DNA of 58,342 bases from a phage: sequence record PZ445426.1. One strand, 5' to 3'. Positions 23,842 through 49,513 of the stretch are shown one piece after another. The notes beneath the pieces were generated by a model that was not told the DNA's origin, searched no databases, and was given only the letters and a program-made list of their open reading frames with translations. Both the position numbers and the translations under genes were made by a program. The first letter of the stretch is position 1; every line of letters begins with the position of its first letter.

Positions 23842-25827
23842 TTAGGCGTATCCCATGTCTTCGAGATACTTCTCTGCCTTAGCTATATAAGCATCATAAT
23901 CTATGTCGTCCGGTATTTTATCCGGTAGCGTCATGATTGGGACACCTCCCGCGCTACCAGCTACACGGTTGCCCGAGTTAGCATAGATTATTTCAGGGGT
24001 TTCTTCATTGGTGCTTAAATACCAGCGTACAACCTTACCCAAAAATTCGCCATTCCATACCGCGCCACCTTTCACCGCACGTAGGATAATGAATTTTCTA
24101 ATATCGTTGCAATTGCGTATAGTACGAGAAACAGGCGTACCGTGGGCCAAACATTCACATACAGCTTCCATAATAATTTCACCAGTACAGTTCTTTTGAA
24201 GTCCTGTCTTGGCAAACCAGCCCTTACGCTTAACTTCAACGTTACCTTCTGCATCAGGTTCTTTGACAGCTACATAGTTGTTAACGTTCGCGCTATATAG
24301 CTTGTCATAATAAGTGGATTCCATTTCAAAACCTGTGACGGATTCCCACCACTTGATCATGTTATCAACGAAGTCCTGCATGTGGTCGGGATACTTAACC
24401 ACAATACCATCGGTATTCGCTGAAATTACTTTAACACCGTTCAGCTCAAATGCTTCAATAAGCATTAACAGTGATAGTTGCCCTGTGATAGTTACCTGTA
24501 TCAATAATTGCGGCGCGTACAGTACGGACCACATAGACCCTAACTTACCGAACGATCCGTTGATTACGATCTTCAGCGTGTTGGCTGTGTTCTTGTCCCC
24601 TGAGTGCTTAGCTGCAATACGGCGATCTACAATACTTTTATAAACACGAAGGAACGCTGGTCCCAACTGCTCAGGGTATAATCCCTGATTAAGAATAATT
24701 GAAGGGTAATAAGACGTTACGTCAATGTCCCGCTTCTTAATACCAGGCTCTTTACCGTGACCAGCACACTCTTCGGAGCTATGCAAACCGCCAATACCCA
24801 TACGGTAGACACCGTCCGCAATCTTGATTTCAAGACCTGTTAACGCTGGGGGCAAGCTAACGCCACCGTTATCGCTAACAACAAAACGGCAGTCCCGAAC
24901 AATATCCAAAACACTATTCATCAGAGGTGTTTGAAAACGAATAAAGTCCGGTATGTTATACGCATACTTTGTTCCAGGATAAACTTGGGGACGCTGGGGA
25001 CGCACACCAGTTAATGCTTGAATTTCGTGTTTAATTACGTCTTCTGCAATCTGCGCATCAGAACGTGAACGCAGATCCACACCGTATTCTTGCGACATAA
25101 TTTCACGAAGGTGCAAAGGTTCTTGTAATGCAATAAAACATTCTTCTGTCTGTACAAGGTCGTTAATACAGTACCAGCGTACAATTAACATCTGGTCCTG
25201 CGTCAACATTGTATTTGGCTTGAACGGTAAATCCTGCATACGGCGAGTATGTACACGTCCGCCATATTGTTTCAAACCACCAGATCCAGGCAGAACTTCC
25301 ATAATATCAATGTGGTTAACGTTCTGCATACGCTTAAGGCGGTAACTCTTCAACACATCGGAAGGACGCCAATCTTCCACGATTATCTTATCGGTTGCGT
25401 GTTTAAGCTGCGCATTAGAACAGCCGTTAAGCGCAAGCGTAGCAATGGGCATATCGTACCCATTACCGTTAAAGCTTACGATAAGGAAGTTTGTCATTAC
25501 CCAGTTAAGTAACAAGCAATTTAAACTGCAACCGTGATACATTTCAAAGTAGACAACTTTCTTAGTTCGTACTCCGCGGAATGCGATCAAGAAATAGTTT
25601 GGATAACATTCGATATCATATACAAGCGGTTCGCGGTTGATCCATGCTTGAATGAGTTCGTCCTGAGTATACAGGTTATATTGGAAGTTTCGAGCTTCCT
25701 CTAGATTTGGCAAATAATCCGGGCGCTCCCAAGTGCGCTCCGGCGGTAAACGCTTAACCTTTTCTTTCTTCACTTTTGGCTCAGGCGGCAAGTCCTGCCA
25801 AAAGAAACCAATAGCATCGGTCCGCAT
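23842..25827 (-). CDS. DNA polymerase, family-B-like, with 3'-5' exonuclease domain
   Basis: Exo I-like YDIE; DVTSYYPSIIL (motif A DxxSLYPS-like); KIVINGSFGKLG (motif B-like); ATG 25827 overlaps upstream stop (TAATG). Confidence 0.7.
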   Translation of the reverse strand: MRTDAIGFFWQDLPPEPKVKKEKVKRLPPERTWERPDYLPNLEEARNFQYNLYTQDELIQAWINREPLVYDIECYPNYFLIAFRGVRTKKVVYFEMYHGCSLNCLLLNWVMTNFLIVSFNGNGYDMPIATLALNGCSNAQLKHATDKIIVEDWRPSDVLKSYRLKRMQNVNHIDIMEVLPGSGGLKQYGGRVHTRRMQDLPFKPNTMLTQDQMLIVRWYCINDLVQTEECFIALQEPLHLREIMSQEYGVDLRSRSDAQIAEDVIKHEIQALTGVRPQRPQVYPGTKYAYNIPDFIRFQTPLMNSVLDIVRDCRFVVSDNGGVSLPPALTGLEIKIADGVYRMGIGGLHSSEECAGHGKEPGIKKRDIDVTSYYPSIILNQGLYPEQLGPAFLRVYKSIVDRRIAAKHSGDKNTANTLKIVINGSFGKLGSMWSVLYAPQLLIQVTITGQLSLLMLIEAFELNGVKVISANTDGIVVKYPDHMQDFVDNMIKWWESVTGFEMESTYYDKLYSANVNNYVAVKEPDAEGNVEVKRKGWFAKTGLQKNCTGEIIMEAVCECLAHGTPVSRTIRNCNDIRKFIILRAVKGGAVWNGEFLGKVVRWYLSTNEETPEIIYANSGNRVAGSAGGVPIMTLPDKIPDDIDYDAYIAKAEKYLEDMGYA

Positions 25828-26780
25828 TAGACACGTTCTCCAATTAATACACCGCGAAGATTTTCCCCAAAGAATGCGCAAGGTTGCGGATACAAACTAA
25901 AGTCCGCGGTCTTAACCACTTTTTCAAGCAATAGCAGGATATCAATATTGTACACTCCCGTTATTGTTCGGTCCTGTAATACGAAGCTTGCACCTTCTGC
26001 ATCGTCATAATGGGTACGCGCCAGACCGTTTTCAATATATACACGAGGTCTGTCTTCAGCGAAAGGTTTGATTTTATGCAAGCCTTCAAAAAGACCTGGA
26101 TCAACAGGATGTGCATTGCATTGAACATTTAAAATACGACGTATATCGGGCCACTCCGCATCAATAAGCTGTGTCCGCAACCAGCGACCTTCCGGATAAT
26201 GAAACGTCACATTGTTCTTGCTAACCTGAATATGTGTCGGGTTAGCTTTAATGCGCAGTATTTCTTTGATAGCAACAGACGGTATTATGCAGTCAATAGG
26301 GAATTGATTACCAAACCAGTATTCCGCAATTGTGACGTTATTTGTAGCAAACAGGCTACCGTTATTGATCAGGATACCGCAAGCCCAAGGACGGGATGCG
26401 TCTGAGCCTACAAACGGGGCAACAGATTTCACACCATGTACGAAGCGAGCACCGTCTATTTCGTATAAATCGCCTTCAGGGAATACGTGAGGCGTTTCTT
26501 TATCAATACAGCGTATAGCAACACGAAACGGACCTGACTTAATATTCAGCTTACCGTTGGCCATCATTGTTAGCTGTACTGTTTCGTCGCAGTTTGAGAT
26601 AGCTTTAATCATAGGCCCAGCTTCGGGCTTACAATCAATATTCAGCTCAATAGGGCTACCCAGTGCAATAACACCGTTAAAGCCCTGTACCTGCCCGTCA
26701 CGAATAAGAAAACTGGTAAGCCCTTCTACCAGTTCCTTTTTAGCAACGGAGCCTTGAACAAATTTAAGAGCGTCTAACAT
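25827..26780 (-). CDS. hypothetical protein
   Basis: 317-aa ORF, GAGGA RBS, translationally coupled to the polymerase gene; no motif recognised. Confidence 0.5.
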   Translation of the reverse strand: MLDALKFVQGSVAKKELVEGLTSFLIRDGQVQGFNGVIALGSPIELNIDCKPEAGPMIKAISNCDETVQLTMMANGKLNIKSGPFRVAIRCIDKETPHVFPEGDLYEIDGARFVHGVKSVAPFVGSDASRPWACGILINNGSLFATNNVTIAEYWFGNQFPIDCIIPSVAIKEILRIKANPTHIQVSKNNVTFHYPEGRWLRTQLIDAEWPDIRRILNVQCNAHPVDPGLFEGLHKIKPFAEDRPRVYIENGLARTHYDDAEGASFVLQDRTITGVYNIDILLLLEKVVKTADFSLYPQPCAFFGENLRGVLIGERV

Positions 26781-27007: not shown

Positions 27008-27927
27008 CAGAACAACTCCATTACACGATCACGGAATGTGCCGTCATGGGTAGCGTTAATGTTTGCAGCAATTACACCATACGCCCATAAGTTGAAGGCG
27101 GCACGTGATTCATAGATTGTTGATAAACGTTCGTAAGTGAAACCGTTTTGCTCAAGGTATTTAAGGACAGCGTCTTGTTCAATTTCAGTTAATGTTGAAA
27201 CATGCTTACCAAAATGATGGCGGTCCGACGACTTATCTGATACGCGCATTGGTCCCCAGGGAGGAGTAACCACACTTCCAAACGCTGCCGCTTGAATCCA
27301 GGAAGATGAGTCACAGCTATACCACGGGTAACGTTCCATAATGGTAGTGGACGTAATACCAAATGCATGAAGCTTAATCTTAGGACGACCGCTACCATCG
27401 CAAATATATTTGTCCCACATACGGTCAAGCCATGTTTTAAGCGTGTCCGTTGAACGCCCTACCATGCCACCAATCGTGATATATTCGTAGTTCTTCATGT
27501 AATATTCAAGATAGCGGAAGTCCTCACCAAAGTGAAAGCAAGGTAACGGTTTAGCACCGCGTGCTTCCATTTCAAGCTGGTTACGGTAGGTTTGCAGTGG
27601 ATCACCGATACCATCGAGCACCGACGCCATTACTGCACCATCTTCTACGCGAAGGATGTCTTTGTTGCGCTTAATGTATTCGCAGTATTCAACAATATCA
27701 ATGTGAGCACCCAAAGAGTGCGCGGAGAATGCACCGGAGTCGAGAAACACTTTAGCCCCGTCCGCACGCATCTGATCAACATACTTCTGACGCCCAACGT
27801 AGTGGTATGATTCCAAAATATGGGGCAGATTGCGCGTGATATTTTTCTCATGCTCGGACAACTTTTCATAACGCTGCTGACCAGGCATATATCCGTTCGT
27901 GTAAACTGCTGCCATAAAAACGTTCAT
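27007..27927 (-). CDS. dpdA: DpdA-like DNA-guanine transglycosylase (TGT fold)
   Basis: 306 aa; FLDSGAFS motif resembling the TGT catalytic DSG motif; GGAGG RBS; adjacent to the folE/queD/queC/queE cluster. Confidence 0.5.
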   Translation of the reverse strand: MNVFMAAVYTNGYMPGQQRYEKLSEHEKNITRNLPHILESYHYVGRQKYVDQMRADGAKVFLDSGAFSAHSLGAHIDIVEYCEYIKRNKDILRVEDGAVMASVLDGIGDPLQTYRNQLEMEARGAKPLPCFHFGEDFRYLEYYMKNYEYITIGGMVGRSTDTLKTWLDRMWDKYICDGSGRPKIKLHAFGITSTTIMERYPWYSCDSSSWIQAAAFGSVVTPPWGPMRVSDKSSDRHHFGKHVSTLTEIEQDAVLKYLEQNGFTYERLSTIYESRAAFNLWAYGVIAANINATHDGTFRDRVMELF

Positions 27928-28130
27928 TTTTGGAACGGTCCTCCAAACTGATCAATTAGTTCTAAAGTACGCCACGCTTCATTAAATGCTTCGTCCGCGC
28001 GATGTTTAGCGTCAATAAGCTGCTGCTTTAAGACATCTGTAGGCGCATCATTCTGTATTGCAGAGCAAGCATCCGCAGTACCTGCTTTAAGCTGGTAGAA
28101 TGCTGTCTCTAAGATTAGTTGTCTTGACAT
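27924..28130 (-). CDS. hypothetical protein
   Basis: 68 aa from ATG 28130 with GGAGGAAAT RBS; stop overlaps dpdA-like start. Confidence 0.4.
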   Translation of the reverse strand: MSRQLILETAFYQLKAGTADACSAIQNDAPTDVLKQQLIDAKHRADEAFNEAWRTLELIDQFGGPFQK

Positions 28131-28150
28131 ATTTCCTCCAATGACTAAAA

Positions 28151-28182
28151 AGCCCATACCAGTATTATGACCGATATGGGCT
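28151..28182 (-). terminator. intrinsic terminator-like hairpin (AGCCCATA...TATGGGCT + U-tract) downstream of folE
   Basis: 8-bp stem read directly; plus-strand A-run gives a U-tract on the minus strand. Confidence 0.4.
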
Positions 28183-28201
28183 TGATCTGTAAAGCTATCT
28201 A

Positions 28202-28816
28202 TTATTTACAAGCTTCAAGGAACTCCCGCCGCCAATAAGCACCCATATCGGTTCCCCCAAGTCCTGCGCGTGCGGTGCAACCACGGAATGCTTTAGTAAT
28301 AGTAGAGCTGCCGCATACCTGCTTAACTCCTCGCGACTCCATGCACATATGCTTGGCGTCAATATAAACACATACAGCTTTCGGATTCAGGTGCTCCTGG
28401 ATAGCGTCAGCAATCTGGTTAGTAAGACGTTCCTGAACTTGCAGTCGACGACTAAAAGCATCCACAACGCGAGACAGCTTACTAAGCCCAACAATCTTCC
28501 CATTGGGGACATAACCCACAACAGCATGCCCGATAATAGGAGCCATGTGATGCTCGCAATGACTGTATACAGGAATATCACGGACAATGACCATTTCATC
28601 CGTACCTTCCGCACCATCTTCAAAGGTTTTAAACAATCCAGCAATATTGACATCATAACCGCCGAACCATGTAGCATAAGCTTTTGCTACACGCGCTGGA
28701 GTTTCCTCCAGCCCTGGGCGCAGAACCGCGCTAACTTCAATTTGGGATAGTAAAGTACGCACAGCGTTAGCAATACGGAATTGAACACCTTCACTATTAA
28801 TACTATATTTAGACAT
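28202..28816 (-). CDS. folE: GTP cyclohydrolase I
   Basis: HCEHHMAPIIGHAVVGYVP and GLSKLSRVVDAFSRRLQVQERLT motifs; ATG 28816 (AGGAAA RBS) preferred over 28849. Confidence 0.8.
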   Translation of the reverse strand: MSKYSINSEGVQFRIANAVRTLLSQIEVSAVLRPGLEETPARVAKAYATWFGGYDVNIAGLFKTFEDGAEGTDEMVIVRDIPVYSHCEHHMAPIIGHAVVGYVPNGKIVGLSKLSRVVDAFSRRLQVQERLTNQIADAIQEHLNPKAVCVYIDAKHMCMESRGVKQVCGSSTITKAFRGCTARAGLGGTDMGAYWRREFLEACK

Positions 28817-32596: not shown

Positions 32597-32618
32597 CTTA
32601 AATCCTCTAGTGAAAAAG

Positions 32619-32640
32619 AAAGCGCCTCATTGGGCGCTTT
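32619..32640 (-). terminator. intrinsic terminator hairpin (AAAGCGCC-caatga-GGCGCTTT + CUUUUUC) immediately upstream of queE
   Basis: read directly; TTGTAA-18-TATAAT promoter-like hexamers abut it at 32642..32671. Confidence 0.5.
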
Positions 32641-32665
32641 CATTATAACGTGATATGTTTTGATA

Positions 32666-33469
32666 TTACAAGCCGTTCAGGGCTTCCGGTACTGGCATAG
32701 GCACACGACCAGTTACACCATTGAACTTCTTCCAACGTGCATACTGAGTTTTAACAGTATCTTCGTTCAGACCGTGACGACCTGCCAGATTCAGAACATA
32801 AGAGATCGGAGCAGGCTGACCCAGCGTAGCGCTAATCTGATCCATCAGAGCCCAGGCACGACCGCAGGAAGTTTCCGGTTGCGGACGGCGAACACCGTTC
32901 TGTTCAGGCATACGATTAGCTTCTTTTTCTTTCTCGCGGAGCTCTTTAGCGCGTGCTTTTTCCGCTTCTTTTTCTGCCTGTTTTGCAGCACGAATCTTGT
33001 CTTTGAAGCCTTTAATAGTAGCTTCCAGACCATCCACCAGACCCTGAGCAGAAGTTACAGCACCGGACAGGTCTTCACCTTTAGACTTCTTAACGACAGC
33101 TTTCAGCTCTTTCAGAGCTTCTTTAATGGTCTTCAGGTTTGCAGATCCCTGAGTTCCTGCTTCCGTGATCTGTTCAACAGTGCTTTCGTCGGTGACGGTA
33201 GCCAAAGAGTTTTTCAGGATTTCAGCAGCGTTAGCAATCGCATTAAATTTGTTTTCCGCTTCAATGCGGATTTCAGCTTGTTTCTTTTCAGCGGCAGCTT
33301 TTTTCTCTGCTTCTTTTTTCTCTTTTGCTACGCGTGCAGCTTCAGCAGCAGCGGCTTTCTTAGCTTCTGCATCATTCACAGTAGCTTCTTTCTTTGCAGG
33401 TTTAGCAGATTTTGCAGCGGCAGCAGCGGCAGCAGCGGCAGCGGCTTTTTTATCTTCAATGTTGCTCAT
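32666..33469 (-). CDS. Lys/Ala/Glu-rich histone-H1-like protein with poly-Ala tract
   Basis: ATG 33469 with GGAG RBS (track start 33478 is GTG); N-terminal KKAAAAAAAAAAAAK and KAAAEKK repeats; globular C-terminal 90 aa. Confidence 0.45.
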   Translation of the reverse strand: MSNIEDKKAAAAAAAAAAAKSAKPAKKEATVNDAEAKKAAAAEAARVAKEKKEAEKKAAAEKKQAEIRIEAENKFNAIANAAEILKNSLATVTDESTVEQITEAGTQGSANLKTIKEALKELKAVVKKSKGEDLSGAVTSAQGLVDGLEATIKGFKDKIRAAKQAEKEAEKARAKELREKEKEANRMPEQNGVRRPQPETSCGRAWALMDQISATLGQPAPISYVLNLAGRHGLNEDTVKTQYARWKKFNGVTGRVPMPVPEALNGL

Positions 33470-33596
33470 TCTCTTCACTCCGAATTGTTATGGGTTCGTT
33501 TGTTACCAACGGGGTTAAATGTACCAAAGGATTTTGTGACACGCAACCCCTTATCTGAACATTTTTAAAAATATTTTTGATCAAGCTTAGAACTTA

Positions 33597-36636: not shown

Positions 36637-37541
36637 TCTTTCCCGTAATAATTAGCTACTTGATAGTTTTGACAACCAACTTTCTGTCCTTGCGTATCCA
36701 CTGAGGCGGAATGGAAATTGCAATACCATGTTCCATCTTCTTTTGGTTCAAGGAATTGACATGTGCGGCAGTTTACTTCCGGCATAGTTTTACGCCAGCA
36801 TAGTGAGGAGTGATCGCACCATTTACATTCGAAGAAAGTGGAATCTTTAAACGCGCGGTCCGGAATATCTGTAGCAATAGCAATCTGCACACCACGATCA
36901 ATATACATGTCCGCGGTAACAGGATCAAACGGAATAATTTCTGCGTAAACTTCATCGTCATTCTTGTTTACAGCAAGATATAACGCTGCGCCAAGACCTA
37001 GTTTTCGCATGTACACGTTCATCTGTACATAGTGCTCAGGTTTGGCTTCTTTGACACCTTTAGCTTTCAGCTTTTTAAAAGACTTATCGTTATGGGTTTT
37101 CATTTCGGTAAGCACAGGCATCCCAGGCTGCACGTCCGGACAACCTATAACCACACCATCGCAGGAACCGCCAAAGTGTCCGCCAGCTTCGCTGATACGG
37201 AACTGGTGTCCGTTTTCATCCTGCTGGTAGACCTGCATACCTGCCGCAAGAAGCATAGCAATAAAGCGCGCTTCTTCCAGATGTCCGCGGTTAAACAGTC
37301 GAAGCTGGCGTCCGTCAAACTCTTTGCGTGTAGCCCAGCGATATCCATAGAAAAGCTTTCGTGCGCATTGTTGACCAATAAGGGAAGCGCCTAAGTGACT
37401 GCGGTTACCGCTTTCAGGACGATAAGCGTCTTCAATTGTGGGAATAACTACGCCAAGATACTTACGGTAAGTCCCACCCTGATCTTTTTGCACACCATCA
37501 TTGATCGCTTGAAGTGTTTTTTCTGCAATATAAATAGCCAT
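36633..37541 (-). CDS. PD-(D/E)xK nuclease (Cas4/RecB-like exonuclease) with C-terminal Cys cluster
   Basis: D...EMK core, QMNVY motif, four C-terminal cysteines (CKWCDHSSLC...CRTC) consistent with an Fe-S cluster. Confidence 0.55.
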   Translation of the reverse strand: MAIYIAEKTLQAINDGVQKDQGGTYRKYLGVVIPTIEDAYRPESGNRSHLGASLIGQQCARKLFYGYRWATRKEFDGRQLRLFNRGHLEEARFIAMLLAAGMQVYQQDENGHQFRISEAGGHFGGSCDGVVIGCPDVQPGMPVLTEMKTHNDKSFKKLKAKGVKEAKPEHYVQMNVYMRKLGLGAALYLAVNKNDDEVYAEIIPFDPVTADMYIDRGVQIAIATDIPDRAFKDSTFFECKWCDHSSLCWRKTMPEVNCRTCQFLEPKEDGTWYCNFHSASVDTQGQKVGCQNYQVANYYGKD

Positions 37542-37606
37542 TGGAATACCTTAGAAAAATAAGCCGTCTTTCGACGGCTTATGGACACTACAGAGGGAGG
37601 GTTAAC

Positions 37607-38488
37607 TTACTGCTGCCACGGCGGGACTGCTGCTTGTGCCGGATGCGGTTCAGCTTGCTGCTGAGGCTGAGCTTGCTGCTGAGGTGCTGCTGCCTGGCCT
37701 GGCTGTGCTACCTGCTGCGCCCACGGCTGCTGAGCTGCTTCCGGTGCTACTGGCTGTTGTACCGGAGCTTGCTGCACTGGCTGCTGTGGTGCTGCATTTT
37801 GAGCAGGATTATCCCACGGCTGCGGTGCGGCGTTCTGCCACGGTTGAGCTGCTGCGCCCTGCTGCGGTGCTGGTTGCTGCACAGGCTGCTGAACTGGCTG
37901 CTGTTGCTGCACCGGAGCTTGCTGCTGTACAGGTGCTTGCTGTTGCTGAGCAAACGGGTTAGCTGCTGGTTGCCGAGGTGCTGCGCCCGGGAAAGCTGGC
38001 TGCTGTGCTGGAGCACCTGCACCAAACGGGTTAGCTACTGCTGGAGCACCCATTGATGAAGCCTCTGCTGCTTTTTCTGCATATTTAACCGGATCGTTGA
38101 TGTTAGCGTAACCGTTAGGCTCGTTGCTGTCTTCATAACCTTCCTGAGAACGAACTTTCAGACGCAGGTTCAGCGGAATGTTATGCAGCTGAGCAGGGGT
38201 ATCCCAGCGAATTACACCAACCGCATGGGACAGAGCACCCAGTTGCTCGTAAGCGATGCGTACAGTATCTTCGTTGTCGTTAATGACGTTATAACGAGCA
38301 AAGATTTTACGCCCTTTAGCAAAACCGTCAATGATGCTAAACGTTACCTGGATCGCCATACCGCCGTTTTTGGTCGGTTTAAATTCAGATGCTTCAATTA
38401 CTGCTTTATACCAACCTTTCGGCAATGCGCCGTAAGAAGGTGCTTGATAGCTGCTCGCGTCAAAGTGGAAATTAGTTGGCATAGTCAT
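37607..38488 (-). CDS. putative ssDNA-binding protein with long Gln/Pro/Ala-rich low-complexity tail
   Basis: about 140-aa globular N-terminus then about 150 aa of PVQQ/AQQ repeats; directly downstream of Sak4-like ATPase. Confidence 0.45.
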   Translation of the reverse strand: MTMPTNFHFDASSYQAPSYGALPKGWYKAVIEASEFKPTKNGGMAIQVTFSIIDGFAKGRKIFARYNVINDNEDTVRIAYEQLGALSHAVGVIRWDTPAQLHNIPLNLRLKVRSQEGYEDSNEPNGYANINDPVKYAEKAAEASSMGAPAVANPFGAGAPAQQPAFPGAAPRQPAANPFAQQQQAPVQQQAPVQQQQPVQQPVQQPAPQQGAAAQPWQNAAPQPWDNPAQNAAPQQPVQQAPVQQPVAPEAAQQPWAQQVAQPGQAAAPQQQAQPQQQAEPHPAQAAVPPWQQ

Positions 38489-43774: not shown

Positions 43775-43806
43775 ATAAAAAAGCGCAACGTTTTCACGCT
43801 GCGCTT
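43775..43806 (-). terminator. intrinsic terminator (AAGCGCA-loop-TGCGCTT + UUUUUUAUU)
   Basis: read directly in the intergenic region upstream of the HNH gene. Confidence 0.55.
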
Positions 43807-43907
43807 AGTTTAAATAAGGTACTTGACTATTCAGCTTCCCTTATTTCCGGTAAATTGTACAGCCTCGCCAAAGGCTGGTGACGGTTTGGTACATCTGGCG
43901 CCGTCGC

Positions 43908-44072
43908 GTTAAACATCGTTCACATCGTTCAGTAAGTTGCGGGTTTACCCTGTCCGCTCCAGGAAGCCCAGCGAAAGTAGTTGCTGTAAGGAGGTACAGC
44001 TACCGCTTTCAAGGGCTTGAGTTAAACATCGTTCACTAAGTTAATGTTGTTAAATTGTTAAACCTCGTTAAC
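43908..44072. repeat. three copies of GTTAAAC(A/C)TCGTT(C/A)AC (43908..43923, 44021..44036, degenerate 44057..44072) flanking a nested stem-loop region
   Basis: read directly in a 384-bp non-coding gap. Confidence 0.5.
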
Positions 44073-44111
44073 TGTGGTTATCTTAAAGGATGCAGTCTTG
44101 AATGGCAAGCT

Positions 44112-45202: not shown

Positions 45203-45230
45203 AAAGGGCCGAAAGGCCCTTTATTTATTT
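45203..45230. terminator. bidirectional terminator (AAAGGGCC-gaaa-GGCCCTTT + T-rich)
   Basis: read directly between convergent genes 44974..45198 (+) and 45225..47561 (-). Confidence 0.6.
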
Positions 45231-47561
45231 GCTTAAGTCTTTGAAAACACTCTCAATTGACTCGTCTATATACCATCCCAACCCCCTGAAATTACGCTTC
45301 AATGCATCCTCACGCGTAACCGGAACAAGCGCGCCCATATCTACAAGTTGTTTGATAGTGAGGTCTGTTGCAGTACCTGCTCCCATCCTGTGATTCTTGA
45401 ATGCTGCTAGCCCGTAGGTTCTGCGTGTGATAGTTGCCTTCGGAATAATACCGTCAACGCGCAGCTCCTTACGATCACATGCAATTTTACCGCCAAGATA
45501 GTCTTTGCAGACCTGACAGATAGCCTTCACACGCGTTTCATCATCACCGCCAATAGTACCTTTTTCCCATGCGTTGATCATGATGTCCTGCCCATGCGTG
45601 ACAAAATCTACCGCCCATTGCATGTGATTGGGTTGAACGACAGGATTGATCCAGTTTTCCCCCACTGCTAACAGGGAGGCGAGACGCAGAGCTTTAAGGT
45701 GAGCACGGTTCCACGGCTGACGAATTGCTTCGTCTTTTGTTGCGTTAATGTGTTCATCGCACAACAAGTTAAACTCCCGCTCAATCCTTGCAGCTTCCGG
45801 GCTTAACTGGACGGTAACGGTCTGAAACTTTGCCATTGTCACTAACGTGTGGTTAACAAGATGACAGACCATGTCCTTTAATTGTTGGGGCATTGTAATT
45901 TCAGGATTCTCGTTTGCAGGAACACGATCCCCTTCATATTGCACAATGTGGAAACGGGACAAGAAACCGTCTTCCATCATTTCACGTGTTAACGCTTCAA
46001 AGAAGGTGTCTGGTGTTGTTTCGCCCAGCACGCTGAACGCCACCCCTTCCATCGTTTTGGTATTATTAGCCTTATCAGAATATCCGATACCGCCAACAAC
46101 ATCCATCGCACCAGATTTTTGATACACATCTGTGATAGTTTGCTTCAGGGTATAGTTTGCAGTGCCAGGTTGAGCCGTTGCCATACCTTTAATGGTTTTA
46201 CCAAACTCACCGTTAATATTCACAAACGAAGTGTGATCCGCAAAACTTTTACGCAAGGCAGGACCGGAAGCATAGTTAGTCATGTCTACAAATTCATGCA
46301 CTTGCGGTAATTGCTCCCCTACTTGCTTACAGATATAGCTGGGCCCAGCGTGAAGCATTTCTTTGCCCACACCTGATCGGGCAATGAGCACAAAGTAACC
46401 GTTCAACCCTGTGTTGGTGATAGTATTCCATACCTTACCGCACACACCAGACAGAAATGCTAACGATGCGGTGATTGCAATTTCTTTAACCGGACGTTGC
46501 GATGCTTTGTAGATGTACTTCGCAAGCTCCCCAGCAAGCCCCGGCGGCCACTCAATAGCGGTTGCATCAATAGACGTACTTTCTGCGACCACTATTTCAC
46601 CAGAAGGGCTAACTGTGGTTACAGGCATCTCTGTTACTTGCTGCATTGTGCTGTGTGCTGCTTGCATACGGGCAGCGTAATCCCGCGCCAGCGCCGCTAC
46701 GTTTTCCTGGGCAATGCGCTCACGCTCCATGCGACCTCGACACATACGCAAGCAACGGTCAATATGAACATTGTTCTTATTAGCCTTCTCACGTTTGCCC
46801 AGTGCACTGTAACGAAATAAACGGCGACATTGCTCATTACTTTCCGTGTAGAATGCATACATAGAAATAAGGGCAAGGTCTGCTTCAGACTGGGAGGGGA
46901 ATCCCATTTCAACCCATTCACCATTAAATAACCGCGCATACTTATCGCCGTTATCTGCTTCAAGTGCACGCTGGTGAATAGTTGCATCATCTTCTACCGG
47001 ATCTTTTTCTACCAGTTCAATTTCATATGTCTTGCGCTGAAGATCAATTTCATTCACAAGCATAGTAAGGTAATGATCACGTTCTGCAACTGGTTTGTTG
47101 TAGACGGGATTACCCGTGCAGATAATAAAACGCTCCTGACTATAAACCTCGACACCATCACGTCGACGACCTTTACCGATGTTACCTCTTAACCACAGGT
47201 GAACACCCAAGCCTGAGCGACTCACTTCGGTGTAAGTATCGAACGCAGTCATGATCTGTTCGAAGCGGCGCAACTGCTCCGGCGTCGTGTGCTTCTTGGG
47301 ATCAGGTTCATTGGTTGCATTCTTCACATCCAGGTCGATGCAGGTGAACGGGTCTTGTGCAGTAAGCACGAAGCCAATATAAGGTTTATTGAAATGAGCG
47401 GCGCAACCTTTGGCAGCTTCAAACGTCATAAGGATATCCGGATCGGTAACGTCCGCCGCCATCAAACGTCCGATATCGTTGTCCCATACAAGCGGCTTTT
47501 TATCCGCATCGGCCACCGCCCATTGTGGGAAAGCTTTAATTTCAGCGGGAAACAGTTCCAT
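45225..47561 (-). CDS. primase-polymerase (Prim-Pol, AEP superfamily) with C-terminal extension
   Basis: Prim-Pol motifs: CIDLDV (DxD), SRSGLGVHLWL (SGxGxH), ERFIICTGN; 778 aa. Confidence 0.65.
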   Translation of the reverse strand: MELFPAEIKAFPQWAVADADKKPLVWDNDIGRLMAADVTDPDILMTFEAAKGCAAHFNKPYIGFVLTAQDPFTCIDLDVKNATNEPDPKKHTTPEQLRRFEQIMTAFDTYTEVSRSGLGVHLWLRGNIGKGRRRDGVEVYSQERFIICTGNPVYNKPVAERDHYLTMLVNEIDLQRKTYEIELVEKDPVEDDATIHQRALEADNGDKYARLFNGEWVEMGFPSQSEADLALISMYAFYTESNEQCRRLFRYSALGKREKANKNNVHIDRCLRMCRGRMERERIAQENVAALARDYAARMQAAHSTMQQVTEMPVTTVSPSGEIVVAESTSIDATAIEWPPGLAGELAKYIYKASQRPVKEIAITASLAFLSGVCGKVWNTITNTGLNGYFVLIARSGVGKEMLHAGPSYICKQVGEQLPQVHEFVDMTNYASGPALRKSFADHTSFVNINGEFGKTIKGMATAQPGTANYTLKQTITDVYQKSGAMDVVGGIGYSDKANNTKTMEGVAFSVLGETTPDTFFEALTREMMEDGFLSRFHIVQYEGDRVPANENPEITMPQQLKDMVCHLVNHTLVTMAKFQTVTVQLSPEAARIEREFNLLCDEHINATKDEAIRQPWNRAHLKALRLASLLAVGENWINPVVQPNHMQWAVDFVTHGQDIMINAWEKGTIGGDDETRVKAICQVCKDYLGGKIACDRKELRVDGIIPKATITRRTYGLAAFKNHRMGAGTATDLTIKQLVDMGALVPVTREDALKRNFRGLGWYIDESIESVFKDLSK

Positions 47562-47842
47562 TATTTACCTTCGTTAGCAATCACTTTTAACAGGGATGTA
47601 ATCACATCCTTAACTTTATCAACAGTGCTGAAAGCTGTATCTAACGTGGCATAGGTGCCAATGTACTGATATTCATCCATGACTCTGATAAATGCGCGGT
47701 ATTGTGTATTTCCACCTTTTAATTCTGCCTCCTGATCCACAGGTTCAAAATAAGCGCATACATCCTCAAATTGTCCTTCTCCCAGCCATGGAGCAGGGAA
47801 TCGAATCATCTCTTTACCTATAAATGGAATTTTTCTAGCCAT
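47561..47842 (-). CDS. hypothetical protein
   Basis: ATG 47842 with GGAGG RBS; stop overlaps primase start. Confidence 0.4.
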   Translation of the reverse strand: MARKIPFIGKEMIRFPAPWLGEGQFEDVCAYFEPVDQEAELKGGNTQYRAFIRVMDEYQYIGTYATLDTAFSTVDKVKDVITSLLKVIANEGK

Positions 47843-48134
47843 AAATCTGTTTCCTCCGCCATTCTTCATATGCTGAATTATTTGCATCGTATACTTCGCA
47901 AGCGTCTTTCATGCTGTCATACAGTCCAAGGAAAGTTCGCCTTGTTTCTCCGCCTACGTCTACCCATGTTAATCGGGCGAGCCATTTACCCGTTTTGTGA
48001 TCGAAAGTAACGCCCTCACGCCCGCTTACATTTTCCCGCGGCACTCGGGGCTTTCGGCGTGCGAGCCCACGACCTTTGAAATTACTGCCCGGGACAGTCC
48101 TGCACTTACGACCCACGACCAACCTCCGGCACAA
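47835..48134 (-). CDS. AP2-like DNA-binding domain ORF (no ATG start; possibly fused to upstream HTH ORF)
   Basis: GVTFDHKTGKWLARL...LGLYDS resembles an AP2 domain; track start is TTG and overlaps the HTH ORF in another frame. Confidence 0.3.
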   Translation of the reverse strand: MCRRLVVGRKCRTVPGSNFKGRGLARRKPRVPRENVSGREGVTFDHKTGKWLARLTWVDVGGETRRTFLGLYDSMKDACEVYDANNSAYEEWRRKQIYG

Positions 48135-48321
48135 CCCGACCAGCGTGCAACATCAAGATAGGTTCTGCAACTTCGCGCACGTAAACGTAAACGTTAGCAA
48201 TCTTAACTTCGCCCGGCAGCTTACCGCGAAGCGAACATAATTTGCGACGGCTAAGACCGAAGCGGTTTTCAATTTCTGATGTGGTTATGTATTTAAGATC
48301 AAATTCTTTTTGATGGTCCAT
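48106..48321 (-). CDS. helix-turn-helix DNA-binding protein
   Basis: 71 aa; ITTSEIENRFGLSRRKL resembles an HTH; AGGAGG RBS. Confidence 0.45.
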   Translation of the reverse strand: MDHQKEFDLKYITTSEIENRFGLSRRKLCSLRGKLPGEVKIANVYVYVREVAEPILMLHAGRVVPEVGRGS

Positions 48322-49155
48322 ATCTACCTCCTAACAGCACTATACACAATACATAGTAAGACAGCCACAATTATTCCACACGAAGTTATGATGTGAGCGG
48401 ATTGTTAATATATAACCACATGTGATGGAAAGTTTTGGGTAGGAATAGTTGGTGCTCCACAGTTTGCACAATGTGACGGAAAGTTTTGTGAGTTTTGCGA
48501 AGTTTTGCGAAGTTTTGTGGTGCCACTGTTGCTAAAAACTTTAATAAAAACAATAAGTTGGTGCAGTAAGTTTTTGCGTTTTGGGGTAAAACGCATTTTT
48601 TACCCTAACACCCAAATCCCGACTGTTAGTAAAAAACGTATATAAATCAATAGGATAGATACTAAATGAATAGTGGATGGAATGGGTAGAAATCCAAATG
48701 ATGGAAGTGGAATAATTTATTCCTACTTGATAGAATAATGGAATCGGTACTCCAGAGCGCAAAAACCTAAAACTTTCAGTCAACAGACTAAAAACGGATA
48801 GAAACTAAAAGTTAATAAGTAATACCATAAATATATATAAAATAAGGATTTATTAGTAATGTATATAGTACCTATTGGTATTATTTGAATGTTTTTGGGT
48901 CACTGTTAAAAAGTCCCAAAACTCACAAAAAGTGAAAGAATACAATTCGTGACAGGATTGTTAATGAAATATGGTGTATGGATATACAGTATTATTCCAG
49001 ATTCCGGAATAATTGGAATAATGGAATAAATTATTGAACTATTGTAATCGGAAGGTATATCAAGCTATAATGCGCTTAATCGCGGGATATTGGAGGAGGA
49101 CTTTATTGCGCGGTTAACCGGACCAGTAGGAGGGCTGGCCCGGAGAAGTTAGAAT
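48322..49155. promoter_or_regulatory. 830-bp AT-rich non-coding region with iteron-like and inverted repeats (candidate replication origin / early control region)
   Basis: no credible ORF; multiple short direct and inverted repeats read directly. Confidence 0.45.
48427..48520. repeat. array of five (G)AAGTTTTG(C/T)G direct repeats
   Basis: GGAAAGTTTTGGG, GGAAAGTTTTGTG, AGTTTTGCG, AAGTTTTGCG, AAGTTTTGTGG read directly. Confidence 0.6.
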
Positions 49156-49332
49156 TTATTTGCGGACGAATACAGAGCCGACAAATAATGTTGACTGAGT
49201 AGCAGCTTGCTCGATTAATTCGCCAACAAGCTGGGACTGCGTCAGAGGTTTAAGGCCTTCTTTGGCGCGTGCTTCATTTACACGGCGCTGAAGGTCTTTT
49301 AGGTATTGAGTTGCGAAGCTGTCTAATTGCAT
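49156..49332 (-). CDS. small hypothetical protein (58 aa, below ORF-track cutoff)
   Basis: ATG with perfect AGGAG RBS; hand translation MQLDSFATQYLKDLQRRVNEARAKEGLKPLTQSQLVGELIEQAATQSTLFVGSVFVRK. Confidence 0.4.
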   Translation of the reverse strand: MQLDSFATQYLKDLQRRVNEARAKEGLKPLTQSQLVGELIEQAATQSTLFVGSVFVRK

Positions 49333-49378
49333 TTTCGTTACTCCTAGGGCTCCCGCAGAAGCCCGTTGGTTGATGTGG

Positions 49379-49513
49379 TTATAGAACGCGCCAGTTAGTT
49401 ATTAAACCTTGTGCGAGCATAAACTTGCCAGTTTGCTCCGCGTCGTAGAGGTTATCGAAAAGTTCTTCTACTTCCCAACCGCTACCGAAATATTTTATTT
49501 CTAAAGTGAACAT
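49379..49513 (-). CDS. small hypothetical protein (44 aa, below ORF-track cutoff)
   Basis: ATG with AGGAG RBS; hand translation MFTLEIKYFGSGWEVEELFDNLYDAEQTGKFMLAQGLITNWRVL. Confidence 0.35.
   Translation of the reverse strand: MFTLEIKYFGSGWEVEELFDNLYDAEQTGKFMLAQGLITNWRVL

Follow-up and report, generated by a model that had tools for sequence, protein, structure and literature searches.

Why is the leftward early operon of a Seuratvirus phage interrupted, 0.8 kb upstream of its primase/helicase gene, by a long stretch of DNA without any gene? Seuratvirus (Queuovirinae) is a group of virulent siphophages of E. coli, and the window analysed here (PZ445426.1) is one complete genome of this group, 58,342 bp in length. 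The stretch in question, in the following called the gap, comprises 834 bp of non-coding DNA (48322-49155) between a 71-aa gene and a 58-aa gene of the leftward early block. An earlier note on this DNA had pointed out an AT-rich non-coding region of about 830 bp with iteron-like repeats, and had proposed a replication origin and/or clustered early promoters. Size and composition agree with that description, the G+C content of the gap being 35% against about 44% genome-wide. Our analysis suggests that the gap is a phage replication origin combined with a switch region from which the replication-gene operon is started, a reading to which we assign a probability of about 0.5. The origin part is supported by minima of GC skew and of duplex stability, by their recurrence in three genera and by the covariation of the iterons with an adjacent protein allele, and it is from these features that we infer it. 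The main rival is a transcriptional switch only; origin and regulatory roles are not mutually exclusive.

The genes of the window run rightward from 1 to 22.7 kb (terminase to tail), leftward from 23.5 to 50.8 kb (replication, deazaguanine synthesis and early genes) and rightward again from about 51 kb. Cumulative GC skew, an analysis that the earlier note had called for, has its genome-wide minimum at 48381, which is the left edge of the gap and not the divergent gene junction at about 50.8 kb. This position holds after detrending and in 27 of 30 rotations; minus-strand genes have about zero skew to the right of the gap and clearly negative skew to the left of it. The least stable duplex of the whole genome is found at 48797-48896, irrespective of whether windows of 60, 100, 150 or 300 bp are used (nearest-neighbour dG -102.5 against a genome mean of -135.3 with a standard deviation of 7.9, i.e. 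4.2 standard deviations below the mean for 100-bp windows). It overlaps an AT-rich core (48786-48888) that is common to all three iteron classes described below, is conserved in the window, SA126VB, CAjan, Seurat, STP-SP5, Dru_SM1 and SLUR76, and represents a candidate DNA-unwinding element.

The same combination is seen outside Seuratvirus. In phage 9g (Nonagvirus, primase 32% identical) a gap at 24867-25903 contains the skew minimum (24875), the least stable 100 bp (25198-25297) and ATCTTTATAAAT repeats. In Providencia phage PSTCR7 (Craquatrovirus, primase 49% identical) the gap at 27268-28268 contains the skew minimum (27369), the least stable 100 bp (27717-27816) and two GTTTTGCG motifs. 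Both gaps are about 1 kb long and occupy the equivalent place, i.e. after the first few early genes. An iteron origin is recognised in silico by direct repeats (at least three copies in a short non-coding stretch, above chance), by adjacent AT-rich DNA of the unwinding type and by a switch of GC skew at the site. The window has all of these, and the standard in-silico features of an origin are present in three genera; this is not proof, because phage skew is largely coupled to transcription.

The repeats themselves are far in excess of chance. In the 834 bp of the gap 77 repeated 8-mers were counted, compared to 24.5 +/- 6.2 in dinucleotide-preserving shuffles (shuffle maximum 45), which is about 8 standard deviations above the shuffles. 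A count of 77 is reached in only four of 288 genome windows, and two of these four overlap the gap. Every repeat listed in the earlier note was recovered where it had been placed. The five iteron copies at 48427-48520 form the class-specific array on the plus strand, which consists of AAGTTTTGGG at 48430-48439 and four head-to-tail 10-bp units AAGTTTTG(Y)G at 48481-48519, reading AAGTTTTGTG, GAGTTTTGCG, AAGTTTTGCG and again AAGTTTTGTG. Tandem Repeats Finder reports a period of 10 with 3.8 copies, and a longer unit, ATGTGAYGGAAAGTTTTG, occurs twice in the array, 51 bp apart. The inverted copy announced near 48905, some 430 bp away, is CCCAAAACTCACAAAA at 48915-48930, which lies 431 bp from TTTTGTGAGTTTTG (48484) and forms with it 23-nt arms that are 87% complementary. 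The repeats of CACTGTT followed by a run of A are located at 48524 and 48901. Exact AGTTTTGBG occurs eight times in the whole genome, six times within the gap. Together with about seven more copies, the five in plus orientation (48430-48519) bring the iterons of the gap to about 12.

Several of the additional copies flank the AT-rich core. An inverted iteron-like pair, CGCAAAAACCTAAAACTT, forms its left border (48758-48775, minus strand), and the right border (48889-48933) carries TGTTTTTGGG in plus orientation followed by CCCAAAACTCACAAAAAG in inverted orientation. A further iteron-like pair, AAGTTTTTGCG and GCGTTTTGGGG, lies at 48568-48601 on the plus strand; here a plus-strand hairpin followed by a T6 run (48575-48595) looks like a terminator. 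This hairpin/T6 element is not kept in STP-SP5, and its function is therefore doubtful.

A second repeat family of the gap is GGAATAAT, with five of its nine genome-wide copies inside the gap. The repeats noted earlier around 48990-49030 belong to it: direct copies start at 49006, 49015 and 49023 and an inverted copy at 48991, and further occurrences are found at 48709/48717 (a palindrome), 48733 and 48370. Two clusters can be delimited. Cluster 1 (48706-48745) holds the palindrome GGAATAATTTATTCC and GAATAATGGAAT and is near-invariant between the window and STP-SP5. Cluster 2 (48988-49033) reads ATTATTCC-AGATTCC-GGAATAAT, followed by tandem GGAATAAT and GGAATAAA; STP-SP5 and Dru_SM1 have kept it, SA126VB and CAjan lack it. 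Outside the gap there are four copies, which are located within coding sequence and look fortuitous, and for the same reason GGAATAAT was rejected as a genome-wide phage promoter motif.

Could such a stretch simply be functionless debris, i.e. a recombination and insertion hot spot with decayed genes, scars of homing endonucleases and repeats made by slippage? The statement of the earlier note that there is no credible ORF has been substantiated. The longest ORFs of the gap (80, 63, 55, 46 and 43 aa) have no match to any PHROG family, and their frames are disrupted by indels in the STP-SP5 alignment, many of which are not multiples of three. No remnants of the neighbours' genes (phrog_27223, HNH endonucleases, 9g gp26-33) were found in the gap by tblastn, which speaks against decayed genes as well. 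Debris could explain why relatives carry extra genes at the right edge (a 327-nt CDS or a plus-strand HNH gene) and why the left part is swapped between classes. It does not account for an architecture that recurs in three genera, nor for a gap whose identity within the close clade (96-98%) is at least that of the same region with its flanking genes (95-96%). The region 48100-49400 shares about 96% identity with Escherichia phages GottfriedDienst (Bas21), ECP2304, RCIP0359, OddieOddie and Skure. Even at 79% overall identity, as in STP-SP5, the repeats and a number of blocks stand out as conserved among spacers that have diverged, and we thus regard debris as unlikely. A borrowed plasmid or prophage origin was likewise dismissed because neither PLSDB plasmids nor 5,426 E. 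coli genomes matched the gap in BLASTN searches.

The comparison within Seuratvirus is more informative than conservation as such. A gene-free gap of 630-1200 bp is present at the equivalent position in all Seuratvirus relatives, and it is modular: the right end and the AT-rich core are shared, and the left part, which adjoins the downstream gene, is class-specific. The shared right end carries a plus-strand TTGTrA-18-TATAAT in all loci and, in most relatives, the hairpin at 49118-49143. With respect to the left part three classes can be distinguished. The AGTTTTG class comprises the window, its close clade, STP-SP5 (79% identical overall) and the IMG/VR locus L014. CAjan, Seurat, SLUR76 and slur01 form the ATAGGG/CCCTAT class with 11-12 copies, and SA126VB, Dru_SM1 and SD04 the ATAGTG/CACTAT class with 6-9 copies. 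The segments flanking the core switch in step with the class, from CGCAAAAACCTAAAACTT and CCCAAAACTCACAAAA in the window to ATAAACTTATAAACTT and AAACTCTATAAAT in CAjan. In detail, the position of 48758-48775 reads ATAAACTTATAAACTT in CAjan and Seurat, which is their own repeat type, and the segment corresponding to 48889-48933 holds GAGTTTATAG and CTCTATAAAT in CAjan instead. The left part of the gap thus has the make-up of an exchangeable module, as judged from these alignments. Between the window and STP-SP5, both of the AGTTTTG class, the spacers have diverged, unlike the iterons, the two GGAATAAT clusters and a 34-nt block (48389-48422); the iteron array is also kept in L014 despite spacer divergence. 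Elements kept amid diverged spacers are the footprint expected of protein-binding sites.

The 34-nt block shows only two differences between the window and STP-SP5. It holds GTGAGCGGATTGTTAAT, of which a second copy is located at 48949-48965, and a minus-strand TGTGGTTA site (48413-48420) that is discussed below. A longer unit of the block, GTGAsmGGATTGTTAAT, is repeated 556 bp off (48949-48965) and is probably a binding site for some factor. Part of the block, TGTGAGCGGAT at 48391-48401, is identical to an 11-nt stretch in one half of lac operator O1; this resemblance is probably due to chance.

Two further observations concern the surroundings of the gap in relatives. Its right border (about 49140-49160) is an insertion hot spot, and the window has neither of the two genes inserted there elsewhere. 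An extra 327-nt leftward gene (phrog_25978) is present at this border in GottfriedDienst, Skure, CAjan and Seurat, and a rightward HNH endonuclease gene stands behind the conserved rightward promoter in STP-SP5, Dru_SM1 and SLUR76 (examples are L001 4052-4378, L007 4283-4759 and L010 3886-4215). A distant, G+C-richer relative (IMG/VR contig 3300033513_000005, L016) has a non-coding stretch with ACACCCCTA/TAGGGGT repeats at 2311-2705. These repeats are followed by a 235-aa gene, a small winged-helix gene (39% identical) and the primase, which is the same gene order; the 235-aa protein has no detectable similarity to the 260-aa protein of CAjan.

Which protein would read the iterons? In 11 loci, without a single exception, the iteron type (one of three) goes with the allele of the small protein encoded next to it (67-73 aa). 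In the window this is the 71-aa protein (phrog_11967; 48106-48321, minus strand), which is 88-96% identical to the proteins of its own class, 67% to that of CAjan and 54% to that of SA126VB. The differences between classes cluster at residues 24-35, the predicted recognition helix. The family is tiny, with five homologue clusters, six hits in a HMMER scan of 1.8 billion proteins and three IMG/VR loci. The AlphaFold model (pLDDT 83.5) has a helix-helix-hairpin-helix topology, and its top Foldseek matches are SoxR, BldC (6amk/6ama), RacA, and the RdfS and Tn916 excisionases (TM about 0.5, rmsd 2-2.6 A over about 50 residues), with E-values of 0.15-1, which are not significant. The earlier note had taken this neighbour for a helix-turn-helix protein; at the level of fold the winged helices found with AlphaFold and Foldseek agree with it, and at the level of statistics (E at least 0.15, no Pfam match) they do not secure it. 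BldC and lambda Xis bind direct repeats as head-to-tail multimers with about one monomer per helical turn. By analogy, such binding fits the 10-bp phasing of the array, and the 71-aa protein, a small MerR/excisionase-like winged helix according to the model, is predicted to be the reader of the AAGTTTTGYG iterons.

Other candidates fared worse. The primase was rejected as the iteron reader because it is near-identical between iteron classes, namely 98-99% identical between the window and Dru_SM1 or Greed, both of which have ATAGTG repeats. A 99-aa ORF with an AP2 domain is unlikely to be the reader because it is only 30% identical in STP-SP5 despite unchanged iterons. This ORF (47835-48134, minus strand) overlaps the end of the 71-aa gene by 29 nt, matches Pfam AP2 with an E-value of 1e-4 (below the cut-off) and matches HNH-endonuclease PHROGs in its AP2 part only; it looks like what is left of the DNA-binding part of an HNH-AP2 homing endonuclease, and Dru_SM1 has a full 174-aa HNH-AP2 gene nearby. 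In the other two classes the repeats are adjoined by phrog_27223 (248-260 aa, 46% identical between these classes), which the class of the window does not have. Its 260-aa member has no match in Pfam, NCBIfam or PDB, and the AlphaFold model is poor (pLDDT 67, pTM 0.32) and its Foldseek matches are meaningless. The 58-aa protein encoded upstream of the gap resembles a ribbon-helix-helix protein by eye, an impression supported by no search.

The transcription signals of the gap can be read in two ways. A sigma-70-type promoter identified by consensus scan points rightward at 49042-49071 on the plus strand (TTGTAA, TTGTGA in relatives, 18 nt, TATAAT); transcription from it is predicted to begin near 49078. 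It is kept in every Seuratvirus locus examined; in STP-SP5, Dru_SM1 and SLUR76 it precedes the plus-strand HNH endonuclease gene, and in the window it would run antisense into the early genes. A leftward extended -10 candidate (48370-48397, minus strand; CTCACA, 16 nt, TG-G-AATAAT) stands ahead of the operon encoding the winged helix, the AP2 ORF and the primase/helicase and overlaps one GGAATAAT copy. Its hexamers and the TG are kept in STP-SP5 (CTCACA-16-TGgAATArT), and the predicted transcription start is near 48362. Another minus-strand match, TTAACA-18-AATAAT at 48909-48880, points into the AT-rich core. Just after the 58-aa gene a 9-bp G+C-rich hairpin (49118-49143, minus strand; CCGGGCCAG/CTGGTCCGG) folds better than shuffled sequences (z-scores -2.5 and -3.2). 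It has no proper U tract on either strand and is annotated as a rho-independent terminator in SA126VB; the immediate-early leftward transcript probably ends here. Because of this hairpin, the conserved promoter pointing rightward and the leftward candidate, we read the gap as probably an origin and a regulatory switch and not as an origin alone.

The same signals support the rival that the gap is a transcriptional switch only, which ends the immediate-early unit and provides promoters for a delayed-early replication operon. The repeats would then be operators: the 71-aa protein would autoregulate its own operon, another factor would bind GGAATAAT, and replication would start elsewhere or without a fixed origin, e.g. 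by recombination. Small MerR/AlpA-like proteins function, as a rule, as transcription factors. In each class the candidate promoter ahead of the downstream gene is overlapped by the repeats specific to that class, a layout typical of autoregulation (TTGCCA-17-TAATAT in SA126VB, TTGCAA-17-TACCAT in CAjan), and recombination functions of the Sak4, Cas4 and RusA type are encoded in relatives. The number of sigma-70-like matches, in contrast, is at chance level (6 between 47500 and 50000, 5.3 +/- 2.5 expected). The clustered early promoters of the earlier note are accordingly not seen as a cluster; two individual candidate promoters are conserved. Furthermore, 830 bp with about 12 iterons on both sides of the least stable DNA goes far beyond the needs of a promoter, and a pure switch leaves it unexplained why in three genera the skew minimum is at the gap and not at the divergent promoter region. 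We therefore treat a switch without origin as a possible explanation, weaker than an origin combined with a switch.

The rightward promoter also raises the question of a non-coding RNA. A 60-80-nt transcript running from this promoter to the hairpin at 49118-49143 could be antisense to, or a regulator of, early genes, the repeats being incidental. In the window no plus-strand gene follows the conserved promoter (49042-49071), and the 104 nt downstream fold better than shuffles (z = -3.2). However, an Rfam 15 scan of the region gave no match above cut-off (the best being DUF805 RNA with 18.5 bits against 51.1 bits, E 2.4), and the sequence behind the promoter is swapped wholesale in STP-SP5, Dru_SM1 and SLUR76, where the HNH gene is located. 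The remaining copies are nearly identical and allow no assessment of covariation, and a small RNA would explain only about 80 of the 834 bp. Such an RNA is an unlikely answer to the gap as a whole. A tRNA scan of the region found none.

Tandem arrays with a 10-bp period resemble centromeres of the parC type. The gap might accordingly be a centromere-like site (R1 parC or pSM19035 heptad type) serving partition or a carrier state, or else a pac or cos site. For 9g, pseudolysogenic carrier cultures have been reported (PMC4276943). Against this, no ParA/ParM-type gene is nearby, the physical end that has been mapped for 9g falls within the divergent promoter region, at a distance of 2-3 kb from the equivalent gap, and the terminase genes of the window are about 10 kb away. 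Partition and packaging sites are the least probable of the explanations considered here, and very unlikely.

The enzyme that would presumably be loaded at such an origin is encoded near the gap. To its right only a few small early genes follow, the last one before the gap being the 58-aa gene (49156-49332). To its left lie the 71-aa gene (48106-48321), the 99-aa AP2-domain ORF, an ORF of about 93-108 aa and a 778-aa primase/helicase gene (45225-47561, minus strand). The latter combines an archaeo-eukaryotic primase (AEP) prim-pol domain, a helix-bundle domain (HBD) of the NrS-1 type and a DUF3987 helicase domain. Pfam assigns PF22763 (28.4 bits, cut-off 27.9) and PF13148, and phmmer relates the protein to the NrS-1 prim-pol structures 6a9w and 6k9a (E about 3e-7). 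With AEP and HBD it has the two domains that define an NrS-1-type prim-pol.

The search for DnaA boxes exposed a strict 8-mer, TGTGGTTA (complement TAACCACA), and the genome-wide excess of DnaA-box near-matches is this TAACCACA motif. It occurs 47 times in the window, where about two copies are expected, and each of its one-mismatch variants only 0-7 times. The copies lie mostly inside genes, on both strands, about one per 1.2 kb. Of the 25 copies with TGTGGTTA on the sense strand, 23 have the codon arrangement xxT GTG GTT Axx (Val-Val). The spacing is far more even than random (P < 0.001), with coefficients of variation of 0.44 and 0.52 for the two strands as compared to 0.95 when copies are placed at random. 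All Seuratvirus loci have kept the motif, and in the form TGTGGTYA it has 52 copies in 9g and 46 in PSTCR7. In the window the copies at 48413-48420 (minus) and 49374-49381 (plus) form a convergent pair that brackets the whole gap (a further copy is at 48280-48287, plus), and the nearest 8-mers bracket the gap convergently in 10 of 10 Seuratvirus loci as well as in 9g and PSTCR7. According to a published account (PMC8718748, citing Zhu et al. 2017), the NrS-1 prim-pol uses the sites 5'-TTTGGTTA-3' and 5'-GTG(G/A)-3', which are read by the HBD, with priming one base upstream. TGTGGTTA differs by one base from TTTGGTTA and includes GTGG. Because of the homology to NrS-1, including its type of HBD, and the likeness to these sites, TGTGGTTA is probably the primase recognition site of this phage.

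Gap and 8-mer can tentatively be joined in one picture, which we hold to be less probable than an origin at the gap as such. An exchangeable winged-helix/iteron module at the gap might recruit the NrS-1-type prim-pol/SF3 helicase, in a genome recoded, mostly at Val-Val, for evenly spaced TGTGGTTA. Plus-strand sites would ring the genome regularly and minus-strand sites would tend to lie in the early arm left of the gap. Such a layout would fit theta replication that starts bidirectionally from the gap and later gives way to a unidirectional rolling-circle mode. If this were true, the 8-mer map would be a readable record of the replication programme.

Several points have to be held against an origin at the gap. 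The strand bias of the 8-mer has the expected sense on right arms, where the plus strand is favoured (17:10, 16:6 and 14:6); left arms are essentially unbiased (14:13, 16:14 and 14:12), so that there is no flip at the gap, and a simple bidirectional strand-bias flip of TGTGGTTA has to be discarded for the left arm. The displacement of the skew minimum from the divergent junction could reflect an odd composition of the few short immediate-early genes. No DnaA box (TTATCCACA, up to one mismatch) is present in the gap; matches to the consensus of integration host factor (IHF) are at chance level, with none in the gap. Phage origins do not necessarily contain host-factor sites such as those of DnaA and IHF. 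With 10 bp, the units fall below the 17-22 bp of classical plasmid iterons. For the 71-aa protein the assigned fold falls short of statistical significance (best E 0.15), and sequence searches with it in Pfam, NCBIfam and PDB came back empty. The covariation between iterons and allele comprises only three independent classes and could be produced by linkage within one recombination block. Finally, no replication or transcription experiments on Queuovirinae were found in the searchable literature, and a literature search on this subfamily located no origin, no transcript map, no description of the gap and no mention of the TGTGGTTA 8-mer.

What the sequences show is the repeats, their conservation and their covariation by class with the protein allele, together with the minima of skew and stability and the recurrence of both in three genera. 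For an origin combined with a switch, the binders, the melting, the loading of the helicase and the direction of replication are what we infer, and the following course of events is conceivable. The immediate-early leftward transcript would stop at the hairpin (49118-49143), after which a promoter of the gap, presumably the candidate at 48397-48370, would drive expression of both the winged-helix protein of 71 aa and the primase/helicase. Monomers of the winged-helix protein would align head to tail along the AAGTTTTG(Y)G array with its 10-bp phasing (48427-48520) and would also bind the inverted copies flanking the core (48758-48775 and 48889-48933). The DNA would thereby be wrapped or bent, which would help to open the 100-bp core, the most easily melted stretch of the genome. 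The prim-pol/SF3 helicase could then load on the opened core, the first primers would be made from the convergent sites 48413-48420 (minus) and 49374-49381 (plus) at the borders of the gap, and replication would proceed outward in both directions.

Outside the gap three regions deserve mention. The second least stable stretch of the genome (43483-43782) is AT-rich (72-82% A+T) and lies partly inside a 336-bp gap between leftward genes (intergenic 43776-44111); it may be another internal promoter or control region. The top repeat-rich stretches of the genome besides the gap are 37200-38400 and 32600-33500. The first of these has 54% G+C and lies in and beside a DUF669 gene (37607-38488), whose counterpart in 9g was labelled a single-strand DNA binding protein by its annotators.

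The Queuovirinae are siphophages with 7-deazaguanine-modified DNA and include members of the BASEL collection that are used as models of phage defence. An origin candidate in this group offers defined cis elements, a predicted binder and three natural specificity classes. It also bears on the question of how an NrS-1-type prim-pol/helicase is targeted. In applied terms, plasmids bearing such an origin might be amplified upon infection. If the reading of TGTGGTTA is correct, this would be one of the few genomes on which a sequence-specific primase has left a visible mark.

How does the gap compare to known systems? In ori-lambda (O protein), P1 oriR/RepA and pSC101, as in the gap, an array of direct repeats adjoins an easily melted AT-rich segment. 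Like the lambdoid and theta iteron origins, the gap lies beside replication genes, its repeat type and the presumed binder are exchanged together between related genomes, and its repeats overlap the downstream promoter, which is the layout of an autoregulated initiator. Differences exist as well. Iterons of theta plasmids and lambda are 17-22 bp long and spaced about two helical turns apart, whereas the units of the gap have 10 bp and stand head to tail. Ori-lambda is located inside gene O and the gap is non-coding. The candidate for the binder is not an initiator of the Rep or O kind but a monomeric winged helix of 71 aa, and the DnaA boxes of theta origins have no counterpart in the gap (up to one mismatch). 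The model of this protein resembles the MerR-like winged helices of the BldC and lambda Xis type, but the Foldseek E-values are 0.15-1 and there is no family at the sequence level; BldC and Xis, moreover, act in transcription or recombination, whereas a role in replication is proposed here. With the T7 primary origin and with oriF and ori(uvsY) of T4 the gap shares candidate promoters directly beside an AT-rich core. These promoter-type origins have no iterons, and in the gap the promoter matches are at chance level and only some of them conserved.

By analogy the gap most resembles the origins of SaPI/PICI elements and of P4. In SaPI/PICI (Pri-Rep) and in P4 ori/crr (alpha primase-helicase), short iterons stand on both sides of an AT-rich stretch, beside genes for a primase and an SF3-type helicase. 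There, too, the iteron specificity varies by allele, and the primase gene is directly preceded by a small AlpA/excisionase-like gene. The difference is that in SaPI and P4 the helicase or primase reads the iterons, whereas in the gap the iteron class follows the small upstream protein and not the primase allele. NrS-1 has in common with the window an HBD and a homologous AEP domain (NrS-1 N300). The 8-mer of NrS-1 was proposed to mark a specific start site, whereas TGTGGTTA is spread evenly over the genome. In this comparison the map of primase sites is more unusual than the gap itself.

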